A stretch of DNA of 64,000 bases from an uncultured Candidatus Saccharibacteria bacterium (GCA_964648105.1 CAZYMH010000003.1:22164-86163), one strand, 5' to 3'; counted from the stretch's first letter, positions 14,198 through 59,692 are shown. Notes: generated by a model from the letters alone, not told the origin. Program-made: numbers and translations.

Positions 14198-15141
14198 ATT
14201 TCTTCCTCTAAAAAGGTATTAAAATAATAATCATGTTTTCGCTTAAATATTTGATCTTTTTCGAGTTGAGGTATATTTACTACGCTGTCTTCAATATGTA
14301 TCCCACCTCCGATAAGGCAGGGGATGACAACATTTCCTCGTTCGGCAATCATTTTGGTAACTGCTGAGGTTTCGGTAAAGCCATAGCCTTTAAAACGTGA
14401 GTCAAACATTCCTACAGCATCAATTTCATCTTTGATAAGCGAAAAAACACCTCCAAGTACCATATTTGGCAACATCCATGCTTTATATTGACCACTCCAT
14501 GATCTGAAATTATTGGTTTCATCAACTAATCTTATGTGTTGACCAATATACAGTTTATCATCATCACATCCTATCCACTTTGCATCGTACACACAGTCTA
14601 CCCTAAAATCGTTGATACTAATGTTTTGGCTTGTTAAACGATTTTGTTTAAGCTTGGTCGATTTTGCATCAGAAAATTCAAAAAATCCTACACAAATCGC
14701 TTTTCTTGCTTGCCTGATTGCCTCAATATGTAATTTGACATGATTAACAATTAAATCTTCTTCAACTAATACATCACTATCTAGAAAAAAAATTATTTCG
14801 CCGTTTGCCGCTGATAATCCAGAATTTCTGGCCTCGGTACGTCCTAGATTTTTCTTATGTACAATTATACGAATTTCTTTCTGATTATTTATATAATTAA
14901 TCATCGGCTTCCGAGTCGAACCATCATCAACAACGATGATTTCGCAACTACTTGGGTACTTGCTGATAGCCCGTTTTAGGAAATATAGACATCGACCAAA
15001 ATTTTCGCCCGTTTCATAATAAGGTATAACTATCGATACTGACGGCAGTTTAATCATATTAATAGGTCGAGATAGTACATCATTTACATCAAAACCATAG
15101 TCATTTACGTGCCTTTCTAATAGTTCTCGTCGGGAGGTCAT
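14194..15141 (-). CDS. family 2 glycosyltransferase
   Basis: SIVIPYY ... IIVVDDGS ... DSD GT-A fold motifs. Confidence 0.75.
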   Translation of the reverse strand: MTSRRELLERHVNDYGFDVNDVLSRPINMIKLPSVSIVIPYYETGENFGRCLYFLKRAISKYPSSCEIIVVDDGSTRKPMINYINNQKEIRIIVHKKNLGRTEARNSGLSAANGEIIFFLDSDVLVEEDLIVNHVKLHIEAIRQARKAICVGFFEFSDAKSTKLKQNRLTSQNISINDFRVDCVYDAKWIGCDDDKLYIGQHIRLVDETNNFRSWSGQYKAWMLPNMVLGGVFSLIKDEIDAVGMFDSRFKGYGFTETSAVTKMIAERGNVVIPCLIGGGIHIEDSVVNIPQLEKDQIFKRKHDYYFNTFLEEEI

Positions 15142-15149
15142 ACAATCAA

Positions 15150-15764
15150 TTATAGCCGTTCGGCAAATTTTATTAGTTCTTTGGCAAGCGTTTGGGGAAG
15201 CTTTTTATCAACCTCTAACATCGCACAAACACCATCACCAAGTAATGAAGCTGCATGTTCAACAGATTTTCTAGCAATATGCAGTTGTGTTGCAAACAAT
15301 GTCAGTTCGCCTACTGCCGTTAGCCCGCGTTTTTTAACCCTATTATCAAACTCGTCATTATCATTTATCCTTAATACCGCTATACCATCTGGCGAAGTTA
15401 TCTGTCCAGTCTCAGATAGTTGAATGATTCTTCTTGTAGCATAGTCACGAACTTCAGTGTGTACTTTTTCACTATCACTTGCATGAGCATGGAGTATTTT
15501 CATTTCTTCAAAAGTAATTAGCGAGACTACGGTCCTATCCTCGAAATTAATCTTATGAGGTTCAATCAGTTCACAACGTTGCCTCTCGCGATCAAGAAGC
15601 TCGTCAATGACAGACTTCAATCCTTTAACACTACCATCAGACTCTGGAAATGGCCCAAAAGTATCATATTCAGGAATCACCTTAAAACCCATCTCAAATA
15701 ATTGATTAGCGACTGTAGTTTTACCGACATAACTAGATCCTTCTATACCGATGAGTTTGCTCAT
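15150..15764 (-). CDS. P-loop nucleoside/nucleotide kinase-like protein
   Basis: Walker A IGIEGSSYVGKTT at the N-terminus, ~200 aa, dNK/thymidylate-kinase-like size. Confidence 0.45.
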   Translation of the reverse strand: MSKLIGIEGSSYVGKTTVANQLFEMGFKVIPEYDTFGPFPESDGSVKGLKSVIDELLDRERQRCELIEPHKINFEDRTVVSLITFEEMKILHAHASDSEKVHTEVRDYATRRIIQLSETGQITSPDGIAVLRINDNDEFDNRVKKRGLTAVGELTLFATQLHIARKSVEHAASLLGDGVCAMLEVDKKLPQTLAKELIKFAERL

Positions 15765-51247: not shown

Positions 51248-52087
51248 ATGGCAATTTGGGATAAAATTAATAGTAGCGGTGACGTTCAAGATCGACGAGG
51301 TAGCCCTTTGGCAATTGGAGGAGCTAGTAGTTTGATTGGTTTAGGTATAATACTCCTTTATTCCTTCATGGGTGGAACCGATACTAATACTTTACAACAA
51401 ATTCTTTCGACAGTCGAAAATGTTCAAGTTTCGCGTCAAGCTAATTCGCCTAACGTCGGTATAGACGATGGTTACCAGACTTTTGCTAGTAAAATAGTCG
51501 GCTCATCTAACGATTTGTGGTCGCAAGTTTTTACTAAACAATCCAAAACTTATCAAAAACCTACCCTAGTTTTGTTTCGCTCGGCCACTCAATCTGGTTG
51601 TGGCATTGCTACTTCAGCAGTCGGTCCGCACTACTGCCCTGTTGATCAAACTATATATTTAGATGAGACGTTTTTTGACGAGCTTACTAACAAACTTGGA
51701 GCCAAAGGTGGCGATGTTGCTCAAGCCTACGTGATTGCTCATGAAGTCGGTCATCATGTTCAAAATCAACTTGGTATTATGGACCAAGTTCAATCACGTT
51801 ATGGCAATAGCAATGCCATGTCAGTCAAGCTAGAATTACAAGCCGATTGTTACGCTGGCGTGTGGGCATATTCTGTCGGTCAGCAAGGTGTCTTTGAAAA
51901 CCCGAATGAAATTAATGAAGCGATTGACGCCGCCGAAGCTGTCGGCGACGATCGGATTCAAAAAGAAACTACTGGGCGAGTTAACCCAGAAACTTGGACT
52001 CATGGTTCCGCTAATGACCGTGCTAACTGGTTTAACAAAGGCTACTCAACTGGCAACCCCGCTAGTTGCAATACCTTCGCAAGTTAA
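51248..52087 (+). CDS. putative neutral zinc metallopeptidase (YpfJ/Zn_peptidase_2 family)
   Basis: N-terminal VQDRRG motif, TM, HEVGHHVQN HExxH motif. Confidence 0.7.
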   Translation: MAIWDKINSSGDVQDRRGSPLAIGGASSLIGLGIILLYSFMGGTDTNTLQQILSTVENVQVSRQANSPNVGIDDGYQTFASKIVGSSNDLWSQVFTKQSKTYQKPTLVLFRSATQSGCGIATSAVGPHYCPVDQTIYLDETFFDELTNKLGAKGGDVAQAYVIAHEVGHHVQNQLGIMDQVQSRYGNSNAMSVKLELQADCYAGVWAYSVGQQGVFENPNEINEAIDAAEAVGDDRIQKETTGRVNPETWTHGSANDRANWFNKGYSTGNPASCNTFAS

Positions 52088-53415
52088 GCAACGAAGTTTT
52101 CGCTTTCGAGAGAATCAATTTTTTCGGCAAAATACTTTGCACTTGGCCTAATAGTCCGTTTCATGTGGTTTTGTCTATCTACTTCGACCAATCCGAATTT
52201 CGGCCACCAACCTTCTGCCCACTCAAAATTATCGAGTAAGCTCCAGTGCATATAGCCTACTACCTCAATTCCTTCGCTCATTGCTCTCTCAAGAGCTATA
52301 ATTGTCTCCTCAATCCACCACTTGCGATGAGCATCGTACATGTCAGCTAGACCGTTTTCTGTGATCACTATTGGCTTTTTGTAATGGGCCCAGACTCGTA
52401 CTAATAATGGGTATAGTCCTTCTGGCTCCATATACCAGCCAATATCACTTATCGGGAAGGTAGGATTTTTGCGTTCTGGCAAAAACTTTTTTTGTTTAAT
52501 CAAGTCGATACTCAGCCATTCGTAATAATCAGTAAAATAATAATTAAAGCCGACAAAATCTTGATAATTTTTTATACGATTCAAAAACCACCAGTTCCAG
52601 ATATAACGCATCAGATGAGTCGCCGAGATATCTACAAAATTTTGTGGACGCTTAGATTGAATATTGGCCAGCTGGGCAGCTACACCAATTTGCAAATGAT
52701 CATGATGCTTTTTGATAATTTTATATGATTTTTTGTGAGCTTTAATGAGATTTATATATACTCTCGCCCCTGTGATTTGATTTTTTTTATTTGGCGGCCA
52801 ATCACCAATAATATATGAAAATGTCGTATAGACATTTGGTTCATTCAAAGTAATCATATATTTGAGCTTTTCAAGTGGTAATTCTTGGCAAATTTTTTCG
52901 ACAAATCTAGTAAAATATTTAACGTTACTGGCTTTTTCGAAGCCACCAATCTCATCAAACCAAATTGGCAATGTCCAGTGCCAAATATTTAATATAGGCT
53001 CCAAACCTTGCTTCATAACTTCATCTATATAATCTCGGTAGTGCTGCCACTGCTCATCATTCCATTGGCCTTCCACAGGCTCTAATCTCGACCATTCAAC
53101 ACCAAAACGTAGCGAATTTAGATTAATACTTTTGGCGATTTTTATATCTTCTTTGTAACGTTTGTAATGCTCTACTCCACTGCCAGAAATATAATTTTCA
53201 GGATTAGTGGCGACTTTTTTTAATTCATCCCAATGATCTAATTTTGATTTATCGATACTAGCAGGATTACGGTTTTTTTCGGAATTTTTGGCAAGCCGAA
53301 GTGCATTTTCGAGTTCCCACACCGACCATTGATTGTGATTATCGCCTTCTACTTGATGCGAAGATGTACTTGCACCCCAAAGAAATTTTTTAGGAAAGAT
53401 ATTTTGTTTTTTCAT
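52084..53415 (-). CDS. family 1 glycoside hydrolase (beta-glucosidase)
   Basis: FPKKFLWGASTSSHQVEG N-terminal signature, catalytic LNEP and ITENG motifs. Confidence 0.9.
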   Translation of the reverse strand: MKKQNIFPKKFLWGASTSSHQVEGDNHNQWSVWELENALRLAKNSEKNRNPASIDKSKLDHWDELKKVATNPENYISGSGVEHYKRYKEDIKIAKSINLNSLRFGVEWSRLEPVEGQWNDEQWQHYRDYIDEVMKQGLEPILNIWHWTLPIWFDEIGGFEKASNVKYFTRFVEKICQELPLEKLKYMITLNEPNVYTTFSYIIGDWPPNKKNQITGARVYINLIKAHKKSYKIIKKHHDHLQIGVAAQLANIQSKRPQNFVDISATHLMRYIWNWWFLNRIKNYQDFVGFNYYFTDYYEWLSIDLIKQKKFLPERKNPTFPISDIGWYMEPEGLYPLLVRVWAHYKKPIVITENGLADMYDAHRKWWIEETIIALERAMSEGIEVVGYMHWSLLDNFEWAEGWWPKFGLVEVDRQNHMKRTIRPSAKYFAEKIDSLESENFVA

Positions 53416-53436: not shown

Positions 53437-54960
53437 CTAATTGACTGCATCTTCACCAAAATGTTTTTTTAGTCTTTGCTTTATCGATCCTGGGTGTCTG
53501 CCGAATTGAGTAGTTAATTTTTCGATATCAATACTAGTGTTTTTCGTAAATAAACCTACCAAAGCTTCGTCATCTTTTTTCGACCAAGGCTTATATGCAT
53601 TGGGGTATTTAGTACGCATTTTTTCTAGCTTATCAGCCCAAGACGAACTGGCTTTTTTATCGTCAATTGATTGATTTTTTTGTTTGAGCCTTTCTTTAGC
53701 ACGTTGCCTGAGATACTCGAATTTTTTGGCATGATTTTTAGTTTGATGTTTGAAGATTTTATCAATTTCTTGGGCTTCGCTACTGACCTTTAAGGCAATC
53801 GAATTGAGTCCGACTAAACTTAAACTTTCTAAGTTTTTTACTCTTGAAAGTGCTACATAGCCCATGCCTTCAACAAAGGCTTTCGACAAATCAATCTTGG
53901 CACCATCGAGCGTCATGCCTTGGCTTTTGTGAATAGTAATAGCCCACGCCAGGCGAAGTGGTATTTGAGTTATACTAGCCCGCTTTTTATCTCCATCACG
54001 TAACTCCCAAGTTTCGGGTGTTATGGTAATTTTACGACCATTTTTTAATTTTACAATCGGATAATTTGTCAGTTTTTCGAAGCCGACTACCACTCCAAGC
54101 GAGCCGTTAACGTACTTTTTTTCAGGATTGTTTCGGATGCACATTACTAAGGCATCTTTTTTCAGAACTAAAATCTCTTGAGCTAAGCAAACATTTTTTA
54201 GAGATTTTACGTAAACTGCACTACCCGTGGTTTCCATTTCGTAACTATGCCCGAGCGTATCGATCTCGCATAATTTTTTATTATTGATTTCATCAACATT
54301 GACATTGTTAGTATGAAGTTCGGTAGCATTTTCGATCTCGATTTCACGCCGAGCAAGTAAAAGATCGATATGCTTTCGCCGTAAGTCACTGCCACGAATT
54401 GAATTCAAAATTTCGAGATAATCATCGTCATTTTGGCGAAATTGTTGGTCTAAATAACAAACAACCATGTCTGAGTTTAAGTAAACATCTGAGTTTACGA
54501 CAAAACCGCCAAACTTACCGTCTGAACGATTGATCGGTGGCAATTGAAAAAAATCTCCGCACAAAATCACTTGAAGACCACCAAATGGCTTATCATTATT
54601 TCGCAAAGTTTTAGTTATTTCATTGATTGTATCTAGTCGAAAATCATGGAGCATAGATATCTCATCGATTATCAAAACATCGGCTTTTTTAATTTGGTCT
54701 ACCCGATTTTTTGATAAATTATCAAAAAATTTTTGGGGTAAATAATCTAATACACCTATGCCACTCCAAGCGTGAATAGTACTACCATTTAAATGAGTGG
54801 CAGCCAGGCCAGTTGTGGCTGTAATCGCCAGAGATTTGCCTTGACTACGAGCAAGCTTAACAAATTGATTCAAAACATAAGTCTTACCAGAGCCAGCAGG
54901 GCCACTAAGCATTACATTATGCCCATCGAGCATTATTTCTAGAGCTAATTCCTGATCCAT
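53437..54960 (-). CDS. PIF1/RecD-family SF1B helicase with C-terminal extension
   Basis: Walker A GPAGSGKTYV, motif II ADVLIIDEISM, ITIHKSQG (motif V/VI), ~70-aa basic C-terminal tail. Confidence 0.75.
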   Translation of the reverse strand: MDQELALEIMLDGHNVMLSGPAGSGKTYVLNQFVKLARSQGKSLAITATTGLAATHLNGSTIHAWSGIGVLDYLPQKFFDNLSKNRVDQIKKADVLIIDEISMLHDFRLDTINEITKTLRNNDKPFGGLQVILCGDFFQLPPINRSDGKFGGFVVNSDVYLNSDMVVCYLDQQFRQNDDDYLEILNSIRGSDLRRKHIDLLLARREIEIENATELHTNNVNVDEINNKKLCEIDTLGHSYEMETTGSAVYVKSLKNVCLAQEILVLKKDALVMCIRNNPEKKYVNGSLGVVVGFEKLTNYPIVKLKNGRKITITPETWELRDGDKKRASITQIPLRLAWAITIHKSQGMTLDGAKIDLSKAFVEGMGYVALSRVKNLESLSLVGLNSIALKVSSEAQEIDKIFKHQTKNHAKKFEYLRQRAKERLKQKNQSIDDKKASSSWADKLEKMRTKYPNAYKPWSKKDDEALVGLFTKNTSIDIEKLTTQFGRHPGSIKQRLKKHFGEDAVN

Positions 54961-55968
54961 TTAGTTATCAGGATCTATCGCTTTTAAAGCTTTTTTGTTA
55001 ACAATTTCATATCGCATACCTGTCATCGGAGATTCGACATAATCATCATTGAGTAGGTTTACAAATTTTGTGGCATCTTTATCATCCATAATAATTATCG
55101 CACCAGTTTCATCTTGCATCAGATCAACCCCCATCTCTTCGGCGTGCGACAACAAATCTTCTTGCGAAACCAACCCAGCATCAACTTTTTGTAGTTTTTT
55201 GATAAGAGCTTTTTTGCCTTCGACAATTTTATTCAAATCCATACCATCATCAAATCTTAGTTTGAAATTTTCTAGAATTTCTTTAACCTTGCTTGCTGCC
55301 ACACTTGCCTCTTTAGCGTCGTAGCCAAACAATTGCTTTAGTTTGGTTTGATTAAAGACATATAAATCATCAGCTAGCAACAAAAGTTGCGGGTCAAGCG
55401 ATAATTGCATTACCGCCTCACCGTCAAATTTTACAAATTTACTATCTTTGAGTAGCCAGCTCATTTTCGAGGTCATAACTTGGCTTTTGGGTAATACTTT
55501 AAATACATAAAACGGATCAATTTTGGTGTTTGGATAAGTCACTTTAGTCATTACACCCCTGATACGCCTAAAGTCATGTTCTTCCTCTGAAAATAATGGT
55601 ATTTCAGCGTATTGGTGGTTTAGCCAGTTCATGACTTCCTTAAGGCTGGCGATATTTTGAATTTTGGTACGTTGCAATACTTTATGCTCGGCTTCGGCTT
55701 CTTCAAAATTTCGAACTACTAATCCTTGCTCAACTCCTTCTAATATATATTCCAGAATTTCATCGATAAAAATTGGTTCTAGGAACTTCTTGAGGCTAGC
55801 GTCGACTTTGGTTTTATATAGAGTGTAATTGCGACTAATAAAAAACAAATCTAGATTCAGTTCGTCTTTATATTGAACAAGGTTATTGGCCCAGGCAAAA
55901 ACATCAGTATCATCAGATGATTCGAGTGGCTTATTTGAGTCAGATTGACTTTGTTTATCGGATTCCAT
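54961..55968 (-). CDS. hypothetical acidic protein, translationally coupled to the helicase
   Basis: stop abuts the helicase ATG with no intergenic base; 335 aa, pI acidic, no recognisable catalytic motif. Confidence 0.4.
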   Translation of the reverse strand: MESDKQSQSDSNKPLESSDDTDVFAWANNLVQYKDELNLDLFFISRNYTLYKTKVDASLKKFLEPIFIDEILEYILEGVEQGLVVRNFEEAEAEHKVLQRTKIQNIASLKEVMNWLNHQYAEIPLFSEEEHDFRRIRGVMTKVTYPNTKIDPFYVFKVLPKSQVMTSKMSWLLKDSKFVKFDGEAVMQLSLDPQLLLLADDLYVFNQTKLKQLFGYDAKEASVAASKVKEILENFKLRFDDGMDLNKIVEGKKALIKKLQKVDAGLVSQEDLLSHAEEMGVDLMQDETGAIIIMDDKDATKFVNLLNDDYVESPMTGMRYEIVNKKALKAIDPDN

Positions 55969-56046
55969 ATAGATATTTTAAACTAAAAATAAGTTATTGG
56001 TGATGTAAAATAGACCATCAATAACTTATTAATTAAGTTTAGTGCG

Positions 56047-56679
56047 TTATTTTTCGCAGGCTATACCGTCATTGTCACGGTCGAGCTTGTTTTGGTAGGC
56101 TTTATCGCTACGTTTGATGTTAAACACTCCAGCGTCAAAAGCAGCTGTACAATTTTCGAATTGACGACCGTTTGAACTATTAGAGGTTGTTTGATTTTTC
56201 ACTTTATCTTTTGCTTCTTGGCTGGCTTCAGAAGCTGGTTTTTCAGCTACGCTGCCGCCGATTTCACCATTTGGCTTAGTTTGGACTGGAGAATATTTAC
56301 CATTCTGATCAACTTGAGCGGGTTCGGTTGCAATTACACCAAAGGCTCCTAACCAAAGTACAAAAAGTGCAATTAAGGCTTTTGCCCAAGGACTTTTCTT
56401 GAAGCCTTCTGGATCATGAACGTACCAAATGATAATTGCAACTAACGGAATAATCGGCAAAAGAATAATCCACAATAACCATCCAATCAAGATACGGCGG
56501 CCACTCGTCCAGTTTTGATACTTGTTTTTGGTCAATGGAAAGCGAGCCAAAATCCAGACTGCCGATCTTAAAAAGAAGCCTGGATGAGCATTTTTTTCTC
56601 GTTCGGCCATAATTTTATCGTTTTCTTTTTGAACATCTTCGTTTGATGTATTTCTTGTAACTTTTGCCATCTCTAGCAA
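56047..56679 (-). CDS. membrane protein with C-terminal Excalibur Ca-binding domain
   Basis: 2-3 TM helices; C-terminal DRDNDGIACE matches the Excalibur DxDxDGxxCE motif. Confidence 0.55.
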   Translation of the reverse strand: MLEMAKVTRNTSNEDVQKENDKIMAEREKNAHPGFFLRSAVWILARFPLTKNKYQNWTSGRRILIGWLLWIILLPIIPLVAIIIWYVHDPEGFKKSPWAKALIALFVLWLGAFGVIATEPAQVDQNGKYSPVQTKPNGEIGGSVAEKPASEASQEAKDKVKNQTTSNSSNGRQFENCTAAFDAGVFNIKRSDKAYQNKLDRDNDGIACEK

Positions 56680-56737
56680 CCTCCTAAATTAATATTTACA
56701 TTATACATTATTATTGCGTGAGCAATATGCTTTTGAT

Positions 56738-57661
56738 TTAATTATCGACCGAGCTAAATCCTATAACATACTGATAAGGCGTACACATCCTGAATCCATT
56801 ATCTTGTTGTCCGACCACAAATAACTGGTTATCAACCTCAGCCCATCTCCCTCCACTTTTAACCGCACACCCTTTAAAGACATCAAAATATTCGGGTTTG
56901 AAGCAGTCGAAGGCTTTTCTGCCGTTCATGTCACGGATAAGCGTGATGATTTCTCGTGAAGCTTTTCTTTGCTGTAGTGTAGTCGGAACATATGGCAGAT
57001 ATAATGGTGTATAGGCATTGATTCCATCAAAAAGCCCTAACGAGTTAATGTAACTTAGCGATTCTTGATTTGTAGAGAATGGATTAAATGTTTCACCTCG
57101 ATTGATTGCCTTGTTGATCTCTTGAGCAGCTATTTTAATCCAGACCGCAGGGTCTCGATTTTTACACCTGAAAAGTCTAGCGTCAACGTTTTGCGAAATC
57201 TCATCGTTGCTGGCAGACATATTAGATAATGAATGTGCATCGACAGGTGCAATTGGCACTAACTCACAATTTTCCGGATCCAATAGTGAATAATATTCAG
57301 TTTTGTGTCTGGCTACTCCCCTTTTTTCCTTGTTAACAACTTTTGTCGTTATGCGGTGCAAGTATTTCATACTCGAATTTTCATCATTTTCCTCCAAATG
57401 ATAGGCATAAGGAAAAAACCCTTCATACATGCCACTTGTAGTGCTAAATTCTTCATCTGTTTCTAGTTGATATGCATCAAAACTCACTTTACATGCGTTG
57501 GCCACGACGTATTTGCCAAGTATATTATGTCTATTTTCTTCTTTAAAAATATCTTCGGTATAAGATGCTTGCTCTCGACTTGAAACAGCCACACCTCTAA
57601 GCTGTTCATTTAATTCAGTTACGTACTGATTAAGCTGGACGAGTCTCTCGTAATTAGTCAT
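56738..57661 (-). CDS. hypothetical protein
   Basis: 307-aa ORF 24 bp downstream of glyQS; no motif recognised. Confidence 0.4.
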   Translation of the reverse strand: MTNYERLVQLNQYVTELNEQLRGVAVSSREQASYTEDIFKEENRHNILGKYVVANACKVSFDAYQLETDEEFSTTSGMYEGFFPYAYHLEENDENSSMKYLHRITTKVVNKEKRGVARHKTEYYSLLDPENCELVPIAPVDAHSLSNMSASNDEISQNVDARLFRCKNRDPAVWIKIAAQEINKAINRGETFNPFSTNQESLSYINSLGLFDGINAYTPLYLPYVPTTLQQRKASREIITLIRDMNGRKAFDCFKPEYFDVFKGCAVKSGGRWAEVDNQLFVVGQQDNGFRMCTPYQYVIGFSSVDN

Positions 57662-57685
57662 TTTTCTACATTCTACTATTACTAT

Positions 57686-58993
57686 TTATTGGTCTAAAAG
57701 TTCCTGCATAGATACGCGTTTTTGGTTAGTTGTATCTCGATCACGCAGCGTAATTGTACCGTCACTTAGACTATCAAAATCAATTACAACGCAGTAAGGC
57801 GTTCCGATTTCATCTTGGCGACGATACCTTTTACCGATATTTCCATTATCATCCCACATGACTGCACCATACTTATTTTTCAATGTTTGATAGACTTCCT
57901 GAGCTTTGGCAACTAATTCGGATTTGTTTTTAAGCAGTGGAGAAACGGCATATTTAACTGGAGCTAAATGATATGGTAATTTCAAAAATATCCGCTTTTC
58001 ACCGTTTATTTCATCTTCTTGATAAGCGGAGATTAGAACAGCCATCAAAGCTCTCTCGACACCAAAACTTGGCTCGATTACATGTGGCACAAATGGCTCT
58101 TGGCCGTCTTTTGGTCGATACAGCATTGACTTGCCACTGTCGCGTTCGACATTTTTAAGATCAAAGTCAGTTCTATAAGCCATGCCTAATAATTCATCAC
58201 GTCCATGCGGATAATCAAACTCGAAATCAATAGTTCGCTTGCTATAATGTGCTAAATCTTCTTTCGGAACCTCAAGTTCATGCACAGCTTCTTTCGGCAA
58301 GCCGAGGGCATCTAACCATTCATGAACGGTGACTCGCCATTTTTCGAATTCTGCTTCCCAATTTTTTTCGTCAATAAAATATTCTATCTCCATTTGCTCA
58401 AATTCTCGTGACCTAAAAACGAAATCCCTTGGACTAATTTCATTGCGAAAAGCCTTACCTTGCTGAGCAATACCAAACGGTAAATCTGGACTAAAGCTAT
58501 CAACTACATTTTTAAAATTTGTGAAGATTCCCTGAGCGGTTTCAGGCCGTAAATAACTAATTGAATTTTCGTCGGCTACTGGACCAACATTAGTTTTAAA
58601 CATCATATTGAATTGCCGAGCTTCACCAAATGGATTTTTTGTACCACATTTTGGACATTGACTAGTATCAATTTTGTCTTCACGAAAGCGACCTTTGCAA
58701 TTGCTACATTCAACCAAAGGGTCGGTAAACGTATCAACATGTCCACTGGCCTTCCAAACTTTTTGGTTCATCAAAATTGCGGCATCGACACCATACATAT
58801 CTTCGCGGTTTTCAACAAACATTGTCCACCATAAATTCATGATATTTCGCTTCAAGCTAACACCCAGTGGTCCATAATCCCACGTTCCAGCTAGTCCGCC
58901 ATAAACTTCACTGCCTTGGTATATAAATCCACGGCGTTTACATAAACTTACAATATCTTCCATTGACACTTTGGTCTGTTTTTTCTCACTCAT
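57686..58993 (-). CDS. glyQS: glycine--tRNA ligase (alpha2 dimeric type)
   Basis: GLAGTWDYGPLG class II motif, C-terminal anticodon-binding domain. Confidence 0.9.
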   Translation of the reverse strand: MSEKKQTKVSMEDIVSLCKRRGFIYQGSEVYGGLAGTWDYGPLGVSLKRNIMNLWWTMFVENREDMYGVDAAILMNQKVWKASGHVDTFTDPLVECSNCKGRFREDKIDTSQCPKCGTKNPFGEARQFNMMFKTNVGPVADENSISYLRPETAQGIFTNFKNVVDSFSPDLPFGIAQQGKAFRNEISPRDFVFRSREFEQMEIEYFIDEKNWEAEFEKWRVTVHEWLDALGLPKEAVHELEVPKEDLAHYSKRTIDFEFDYPHGRDELLGMAYRTDFDLKNVERDSGKSMLYRPKDGQEPFVPHVIEPSFGVERALMAVLISAYQEDEINGEKRIFLKLPYHLAPVKYAVSPLLKNKSELVAKAQEVYQTLKNKYGAVMWDDNGNIGKRYRRQDEIGTPYCVVIDFDSLSDGTITLRDRDTTNQKRVSMQELLDQ

Positions 58994-59026: not shown

Positions 59027-59692
59027 CTAATCAAAACTGATCTGGATAAGTTGGTTTTTGATATTTTGAATAACATCGATATTTTTTGGCAATGATTCAA
59101 AATTCATCGGCTGAGAATTTTTGGCCAATAATCGCATAAATTTTATATCATTTTTTTGTAAGCTTCCTTGTGTGTCTGGTACAAAAATTTGCTTTTCATA
59201 GTCAAAAAAATAGTTATCATAATCACCATTTTCGGCAATCAATTCGCCCAGTAAACCTGCACAAAAAAGAGTGTGCATGCCAAACCAGATATCTACAACT
59301 TGATAATTAAAAGTTGGAATATTTAAATACATCAAAAAATTTTTTAAGTTATCGTAACTATAGCTTTCGGTATTTTCTGACGTAATATTACTTGTTAATT
59401 TAAGTCCTGCATAAGCTAAATCAAGCCGCTTAATATCTTTGACAATTTCTTCAAAATAGTCAATCATAGTTGCACCAACAAGCGGTTTCATACTTTTAGA
59501 TGAATCGATAAAACTCATATTGCTAACCGACATTAGCTCCACACCACCCGCTAATTTGCTCTTGCTGGCACGGACATTTTTTGCAAATAAAGTTTGGCGA
59601 CCATGCTGTTTAGTGATTACAGTTAATATCCGATCTTTTTCACCAAAATTTACGCGTTTAAGTACAATTGCTTCGTCAATGATTTTGTTCAT
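59027..59692 (-). CDS. recO: DNA repair protein RecO
   Basis: N-terminal OB-fold (EAIVLKRVNFGEKDRILTVITKQHG), ~220 aa, classic position next to glyQS. Confidence 0.7.
   Translation of the reverse strand: MNKIIDEAIVLKRVNFGEKDRILTVITKQHGRQTLFAKNVRASKSKLAGGVELMSVSNMSFIDSSKSMKPLVGATMIDYFEEIVKDIKRLDLAYAGLKLTSNITSENTESYSYDNLKNFLMYLNIPTFNYQVVDIWFGMHTLFCAGLLGELIAENGDYDNYFFDYEKQIFVPDTQGSLQKNDIKFMRLLAKNSQPMNFESLPKNIDVIQNIKNQLIQISFD

Follow-up and report, generated by a model that had tools for sequence, protein, structure and literature searches.

Do the four co-directional genes that lie between glyQS-recO and a glycosidase gene in an uncultured Candidatus Saccharibacteria bacterium make up an undescribed anti-phage module? 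The question arose from a preliminary description of a 64,000-nucleotide stretch of this genome (GCA_964648105.1 CAZYMH010000003.1:22164-86163, hereafter the window, with positions counted from its first letter), which singled out positions 53437-57661 on the minus strand. These were said to encode an acidic 335-amino acid (aa) protein of no assigned family, a PIF1/RecD-type helicase, an Excalibur membrane protein and a 307-aa orphan. All sequence-level statements of that description, i.e. the gene calls, the flanking genes for glycyl-tRNA synthetase (GlyRS), RecO and a GH1 glycosidase, and the common direction of the genes, were confirmed by the list of open reading frames (ORFs) and by Pfam. 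The interpretation fared differently: what is conserved is a pair of genes, one KwaB-like and one for a Pif1-type helicase, which is fixed in the Saccharibacteria chromosome and does not represent a defence architecture of a new kind.

The 335-aa protein (54961-55968, minus strand) is a homologue of KwaB, both by sequence profile and by fold, and its comparison with the DUF4868/KwaB family, recommended in the preliminary description, placed it within that family. Its score for the Pfam KwaB entry PF16162 (DUF4868) is 46.5 bits, where 26.3 are required, and the alignment to the PADLOC KwaB model PDLC00233 runs over the entire length (5e-13); the cut-off of the NCBIfam KwaB equivalog NF041623 was not reached (49.7 vs 200 bits). 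The AlphaFold2 (AF2) model, built with 29 homologues (pLDDT 78.8), agreed in model comparison with the fold of solved KwaB, with which the protein shares 12-15% identity. Sequence searches of solved structures, using either the single sequence or the A1 profile, returned KwaB only marginally (E 0.15-0.5), so that the homology rests on family hidden Markov models (HMMs) and fold, and the protein is to be seen as a distant family member. A disordered, variable and acidic N-terminus (aa 1-21) is followed by an N-terminal alpha/beta domain (approximately aa 22-150) and by the C-terminal DUF4868 domain (approximately aa 151-335). KwaB of the Kiwa system is dimeric and has a Rossmann-like domain at its N-terminus and, at its C-terminus, DUF4868, through which it binds single-stranded (ss) and double-stranded (ds) DNA without cutting, with preference for ssDNA; it is anchored by KwaA, a protein with four transmembrane segments (4-TM), and was proposed to stall phage replication forks (PMC11785009). 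It should be added that the acidity of the 335-aa protein (isoelectric point, pI, 4.85), correctly noticed before, was rejected as a distinguishing trait: a low pI is common to the family, and KwaA-linked canonical KwaBs are equally acidic. Nor is the identity new, since close relatives are already labelled by NCBI as "Kiwa anti-phage protein KwaB-like domain-containing protein".

The helicase (507 aa; 53437-54960, minus strand) is a Pif1/Dda-like enzyme of superfamily 1B (SF1B), with predicted 5'-3' polarity. It matches PIF1 PF05970 (1.5e-31, 110 bits vs a cut-off of 25.9) and the Dda-like phrog_325 (3e-61), and the motifs read in its translation, namely GPAGSGKT (Walker A), DEISM, GDFFQLPP, TIHKSQG and YVALSR, agree with the type first assigned to it. 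A Pif1-type stretch, PFGGLQVILCGDFFQLPP, is visible in the sequence, and Pif1_2B_dom PF21530 scored 23.6 bits, borderline to its cut-off of 23.9, while the RecD2 equivalog TIGR01448 was not reached (82.6 bits vs 500). The extra basic C-terminal tail, initially put at about 70 aa, spans aa 426-507 (53440-53685, minus strand; pI 9.7); its per-block conservation is poor (0.13-0.29), and no Pfam match to it was found at E<=0.1. In the orthologue from Southlakia epibionticum, SEML1_0264, residues 236-345 were assigned by DPAM to an SH3 domain and residues 436-505, which correspond to this tail, to a tri-helical domain (PMC10633639 Table S2).

The TAA stop codon of the KwaB-like gene abuts the ATG of the helicase gene with zero gap; the junction reads "...gataacTAAATGgatcag", and the sequence around it is ...GATAACTAAATGGATCAG.... 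On the strength of this junction the two had been called an obligate pair. The recurrence of the pair is borne out by related genomes, the obligate junction is not: in the closest relative (L001) approximately 230 bp separate the two genes, and the zero-gap arrangement is therefore local to the window genome. Across 80 related loci (L001-L080), analysed by tblastn and ORF clustering, a same-strand helicase lies within the analysed flank of 65 of the 71 evaluable ones. It is the next ORF after the KwaB-like gene in 22 loci, with gaps of 5-266 bp, and is immediately upstream of it in two, in the order seen in S. epibionticum; taken over the loci other than L001, the spacing varies between 5 bp and several kb, and some have the genes in the opposite order. 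The common backbone starts with a histidine kinase-response regulator pair, recO and glyQS, and continues through a variable slot to the KwaB-like gene and the helicase. Genes for a signal peptidase, an NYN-domain protein, a metallo-beta-lactamase (MBL)-fold protein, an aldo-keto reductase and YvcK come next, and then mraZ-rsmH-ftsL-pbp. Where at least 7 kb of the respective flank was available, glyQS was found upstream in 28 of 52 loci and mraZ/rsmH downstream in 36 of 49. Furthermore, an RNase HI gene is within three genes of the KwaB-like gene in 27 of the 80 loci, and recO is also close. As a separate observation on the spacing, a gene for a PaaX-like regulator (Cas2-like PaaX_M) and an ORF of about 73 aa often stand between the two genes in the window's subclade (L028, L034, L036, L038, L043, L048, L049 and L053); the window has neither.

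The distribution of the KwaB-like protein is wide within one lineage. Among 5.8 billion proteins 1827 relatives were detected, and the best 120 of these are full-length, share 58-100% identity and come, as far as sources are named, exclusively from Saccharibacteria. At least 206 species-representative Saccharibacteria genomes encode a relative, as counted on contigs from one genome per species, nearly all with titles naming Saccharibacteria or Saccharimonadales. A profile search of 1.84 billion representatives at 50% identity yielded 309 clusters, of which the Saccharibacteria clade forms a handful. The alignment of 29 KwaB-like sequences has a mean column identity of 69% and 60 invariant columns. 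Mean pairwise identity of the KwaB-like proteins (65-67%) is to be set against 67% for GlyRS; other proteins of the locus range from MraZ (76%) through RsmH (61%) and the helicase (60%) to RecO (52%). Divergence of the KwaB-like protein correlates with that of RsmH (r 0.70) and of the helicase (r 0.69). These identity levels, together with divergence that tracks RsmH, point to vertical inheritance under strong purifying selection, unlike what is expected of a mobile defence gene. GlyRS itself behaves in an unusual manner: its identity to the window protein is bimodal, with values of 45-52% (e.g., L002, L024, L030, L041 and L077) or 58-87%, and does not track KwaB-like divergence (r 0.12), which hints at two lineages or at xenologous replacement within Saccharibacteria.

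Independent data on the pair are available from S. epibionticum, where SEML1_0264, the helicase, adjoins SEML1_0265 (DUF4868, PF16162) (PMC10633639 Tables S1, S2). SEML1_0264 is assigned to KEGG K15255 (PIF1) and flagged as a "core family" of the Candidate Phyla Radiation (CPR), and the two genes are followed by GH1, YvcK and rsmH (PMC10633639). Transposon sequencing (Tn-seq) scored both as non-essential at all three time points (PMC10633639 Table S1), with rsmH and ftsL being essential in the same organism (PMC10633639). The pair is therefore conserved yet dispensable in phage-free co-culture. The preliminary description had named, as the finding that would speak against a novel module, a pair placed universally beside glyQS-recO as part of a core replication/repair operon; synteny and conservation largely agree with such a core position, and the Tn-seq result disagrees with an essential replication operon.

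Outside Saccharibacteria, the next-best full-length family members and three IMG/VR contigs provided eight phage or phage-like settings, all metagenomic. Replication or recombination genes are close to the KwaB-like gene in seven of these eight; the exception is L081, with a ParB-like gene upstream and RtcB downstream. L083 and L094 encode RecT, the KwaB-like protein and a PD-(D/E)XK nuclease fused to an FtsK-type ATPase, and the same nuclease-ATPase fusion is present in L085. In L092, SSB and VRR-NUC are encoded upstream and terminase and portal downstream; L084 has RusA, and an O-like replication initiator is upstream in L082. The closest counterpart of the window is L088, which reads RecT, YqaJ, ..., a helix-turn-helix (HTH) protein, the KwaB-like protein, a Pif1 helicase and a HerA-like protein, with one base between the KwaB-like and helicase genes. 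The L088 helicase (422 aa) is devoid of the basic C-terminal tail and shares 43% identity over 406 aa with that of the window, and many Saccharibacteria orthologues are no closer. In a rough neighbour-joining (NJ) tree the Saccharibacteria clade nested among phage sequences, with KwaA-linked KwaBs outside. Searches with three family members by tblastn against 50,697 GenBank phage records gave no match, and the phage relatives therefore derive from uncultivated viruses. It should also be mentioned that the fusions of PD-(D/E)XK nuclease and FtsK/SpoIIIE-type ATPase, about 700 aa long (L083:7114-9267, L085:3686-5773 and L094:7369-9516), represent, beside RecT and a KwaB-like gene, an unusual architecture of a recombination module.

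KwaA was sought in several ways. PADLOC KwaA models gave no match at E<=1 in any of the four window proteins. Phmmer searches with two genuine KwaA queries, from L099 and L090, found none among all window ORFs (best E 0.026, for a 64-aa ORF) and no KwaA among 1359 ORFs from the 80 related loci. As a positive control, the PADLOC models scored the KwaA of L099 and L090 at 1e-25 to 1e-28; the negative result thus relies on PADLOC and phmmer with controls and not on Pfam PF28043. As KwaA is absent, the window locus is not a Kiwa system. The Excalibur membrane protein was considered as a KwaA analogue and rejected, having no PADLOC KwaA match and no similarity to KwaA by phmmer or by BLASTP (E 2.1).

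One Saccharibacterium has both kinds of genes. On a single contig (L096, L097 and L099), a complete canonical Kiwa (KwaA and KwaB; L099:7466-8945) directly follows glyQS, and the core KwaB-like gene is located 5 kb downstream of it (14202-15281), with a Zeta-toxin gene between them. The core protein is 53% identical to that of the window, and the locus contains two KwaB paralogues of different kinds. That L099 keeps its core gene beside a true Kiwa suggests that both are non-redundant. A more distant relative, P0174, is found in a textbook Kiwa context of KwaA and KwaB with an HNH endonuclease and a methylase.

What the pair does can be approached by analogy with Kiwa KwaB and with Pif1/Dda-like helicases. 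We consider the chances to be even that it is a DNA-maintenance pair, in which a KwaA-independent DNA-binding cofactor and an accessory helicase would act on replication and recombination intermediates. The KwaB-like protein would dimerise as Kiwa KwaB does, would bind ssDNA or ssDNA-dsDNA junctions at forks, gaps and recombination intermediates, and may be the helicase's cofactor or its targeting subunit; the helicase would unwind or clear fork, gap or recombination structures. Together the two would aid replication restart or recombination as an accessory module that the cell can do without. The pair appears related to a replication/recombination module of phages, with transfer possible in either direction. 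From the phage-borne relatives we infer that the pair was exchanged with phages at some point.

A number of facts weigh against the role in DNA maintenance. The linkage to the helicase is strong and not absolute, with no helicase within the flank in six of the 71 loci, and a Pif1 helicase adjoins the KwaB-like gene in only one of the eight phage settings. The NJ tree has no support values, and the 206 species, a lower bound, do not prove the gene to be universal in Saccharibacteria. When the DNA-contacting residues of E. coli KwaB (R142, R167, K187, R233, N134 and D169) were compared in a weak profile alignment (E 0.16-0.54), the residues facing R142 and R167 were T166 and Q188 in the window protein and lysine or arginine in most of the clade; a lysine adjoins the position of K187. 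Finally, characterised members of the KwaB family are all antiviral effectors, non-essentiality in phage-free co-culture suits defence equally well, and next to the pair is a slot in which toxin-antitoxin genes accumulate and in which L099 has canonical Kiwa.

These last three points are at the same time the foundation of the strongest rival, a chromosomally fixed, KwaA-independent antiviral pair, in which the KwaB-like protein would attach to invader DNA and block its replication and the helicase would be a sensor or motor in the style of Hachiman or Gabija. It could further draw on the partial matches of the helicase to the PADLOC candidates PDC-S68 and PDC-M16A, yet these cover the generic ATPase core only. 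There is no KwaA in the window or in the 80 loci, and the lineage-wide, syntenic and vertical mode of inheritance with conservation at the level of GlyRS contrasts with canonical Kiwa genes, approximately 53% of which co-localise with mobile elements (PMC11785009). Moreover, the phage-borne relatives occupy replication/recombination modules and not moron or defence positions, and the apparent non-redundancy with true Kiwa in L099 also argues against an antiviral role. We regard this reading as rather unlikely, while it deserves to be kept beside the DNA-maintenance role; the resemblance to an anti-phage module seen in the preliminary description does not extend to the mobility that marks such systems.

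A handling of imported DNA, whereby the pair would bind DNA entering the cell and unwind it so that it can be recombined or degraded, is improbable in our view. Saccharibacteria are naturally competent and salvage nucleotides, KwaB prefers ssDNA (PMC11785009), and recO and RNase HI are close by; in addition, because wild-type cells were transformed to obtain the Tn-seq mutants, a role in competence would not score as essential (PMC10633639). Against this, no link to com genes was observed at any locus, and the phage homologues indicate replication/recombination and not uptake.

The least tenable proposals concern the remaining two genes and the origin of the pair. In a four-gene defence module, the Excalibur membrane protein would sense infection and the 307-aa protein would be a further component, and the co-direction and tight spacing of the genes are in line with this. 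The 210-aa Excalibur protein (56047-56679, minus strand) is, as described before, a membrane protein, with two hydrophobic segments (59-90 and 97-121) and a C-terminal Excalibur domain (aa 174-209; 56053-56160, minus strand; PF05901, 3.4e-12, 46.9 bits vs a cut-off of 22), in which DRDNDGIACE conforms to the motif DxDxDGxxCE; no PADLOC match to it was found. Only 14 of the 80 loci, each belonging to the window's subclade, have its gene in the vicinity of the KwaB-like gene, usually with a DUF937 gene between the two, and the protein is unlike KwaA. In the window, an AT-rich inverted repeat (I1; 55988-56030, minus strand) separates the Excalibur stop from the KwaB-like start. It has 20-nt arms forming a perfect stem and is followed by a U-run; the RNA fold has a free energy of -16.5 kcal/mol (z -5.3), a value that no shuffled sequence out of 200 attained. 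The hairpin was found by a repeat search and missed by the GC-based terminator scan; counts in promoter and terminator consensus scans were not above shuffled expectation. It is probably an intrinsic terminator of the Excalibur gene, which would split the region into two transcription units; alternatively, it is possibly a palindromic operator.

The 307-aa acidic protein (56738-57661, minus strand), encoded between glyQS and the Excalibur gene, deserves its earlier designation as an orphan. HMM library searches gave no family match, its sole match among 5.8 billion proteins was itself, a three-sequence profile found its seeds only, and an iterative HMM search of the family in 1359 locus ORFs returned nothing further. 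None of the 80 related loci carries the gene, and L001, the nearest of them, has just 83 bp in its place. Two remote relatives of 322-336 aa with approximately 20-22% identity (L015:2458-3468 and L075:3285-4253) have the SYINSLGL motif in common with it, and both directly adjoin KwaB-like genes, which speaks for a four-gene module; three genomes in all are involved. The single-sequence AF2 model was unusable (pLDDT 30.9), and repeats flanking the insertion were limited to short matches at chance level. The 307-aa gene, a near-orphan specific to this strain, lies in a hypervariable slot, and we propose that it and the Excalibur gene, both outside the pair, are unrelated occupants of this slot. 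The four genes accordingly do not form one module as had been suggested, and we attach very little probability to that arrangement. Equally hard to uphold is a decaying remnant of an ancient prophage without present function, to which the phage-borne nearest relatives might point, as the genes are intact and full-length in all loci, are conserved at about 65% mean identity with 60 invariant columns across 29 diverse members, and have no other phage genes near them at the window locus.

The slot is of interest in its own right. The interval from glyQS to the KwaB-like gene (55969-57685 in the window) is hypervariable across L001-L080 and is possibly a hot spot of integration in this lineage. 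Across genomes it contains RNase HI, AbrB/Doc-like toxin-antitoxin pairs, Zeta toxin, an RND transporter, diaminopimelate (DAP) decarboxylase, YaaA-like and UppP genes, and orphans. At 53-58 kb the base composition (GC 0.36-0.39) is like that of the remainder of the window. On the upstream side the region is bordered by GlyRS (57686-58993; tRNA-synt_2b and HGTP_anticodon) and RecO (59027-59692; RecO_N), both identified with Pfam. Downstream are the GH1 glycosidase (52084-53415; PF00232, 6e-78) and a convergent Zn-metallopeptidase on the plus strand (51248-52087), with mraZ-rsmH beyond; the 3' ends of the two convergent genes, GH1 and metallopeptidase, overlap by 4 bp (52084-52087).

The significance of these observations lies in the biology of the KwaB fold. 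KwaB has hitherto been known solely as the effector of the membrane-anchored Kiwa complex, its action on DNA is only partly understood, and the Kiwa study covered complete KwaA+KwaB systems only (PMC11785009). In the literature searched, no paper was found that links DUF4868 to Saccharibacteria, Pif1 helicases or phage recombination modules. The present data reveal a large KwaA-less KwaB branch, conserved at the level of an aminoacyl-tRNA synthetase in a genome-reduced lineage genetically tied to a Pif1-type helicase, and represented in the replication/recombination modules of phages. Such features suggest that the KwaB fold has a cellular activity outside immunity, in which it would bind forks or junctions together with a helicase and which, if so, would bear on fork stalling by Kiwa. 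We put forward, tentatively and with less confidence than the DNA-maintenance role itself, that Saccharibacteria, a lineage at the level of a phylum, fixed a KwaB-like/Pif1 pair of phage type as a core module of the chromosome and that DUF4868 was ancestrally a cofactor of fork or recombination helicases, or else that the pair provides KwaA-independent, vertically inherited Kiwa-like immunity. If the former holds, Kiwa immunity would be a later exaptation that tethered a fork-binding protein to a membrane sensor; if the latter, ultrasmall epibionts would provide the first case of Kiwa-like immunity that works without KwaA and is inherited vertically. Two conserved genes of Saccharibacteria, a lineage now open to genetics, also gain a testable function, and SEML1_0264 and SEML1_0265, being non-essential, are deletable. 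When defence systems are counted from annotation, Saccharibacteria genes with an automatic label of the type "Kiwa anti-phage protein KwaB-like" should be left out.

Comparison with known systems places the pair as follows. With Hachiman HamAB, Gabija GajAB, PDC-S68 and PDC-M16A it shares the two-gene logic of a helicase with a nuclease or non-enzymatic partner; the Hachiman and Gabija partners, proposed for checking in the preliminary description, did not emerge, as PADLOC detected no HamA, HamB or GajA in the four window proteins and GajB only at E 0.068. With Kiwa (KwaA and KwaB; PF28043 and PF16162; PDB 9mrx, 9mtn, 9nyu and 9o0i) it has a DUF4868 protein of the KwaB family in common. Kiwa, however, has an adjacent KwaA (4-TM, about 180-200 aa), which the window and the 80 related loci are devoid of, and is often located on mobile elements, whereas the window gene is fixed at a syntenic core position and partnered by a helicase. 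The likeness to Pif1 and T4 Dda-like SF1B helicases (PF05970; phrog_325) comprises the helicase motifs, a Pif1-type segment placed between II and III, and a putative 2B/SH3-like insert; the window helicase differs from them in its C-terminal tail, an extra basic stretch of some 80 aa with poor conservation, and in its linkage to a DUF4868 protein, a partnership undescribed in the literature searched. Phage modules with RecT and YqaJ/PD-(D/E)XK nucleases contain relatives that are 29-48% identical to the 335-aa protein. Unlike these modules, the window locus has housekeeping neighbours and no RecT, exonuclease or other phage genes, and yet one of them, L088, has the very order of the window, the KwaB-like gene and then Pif1.

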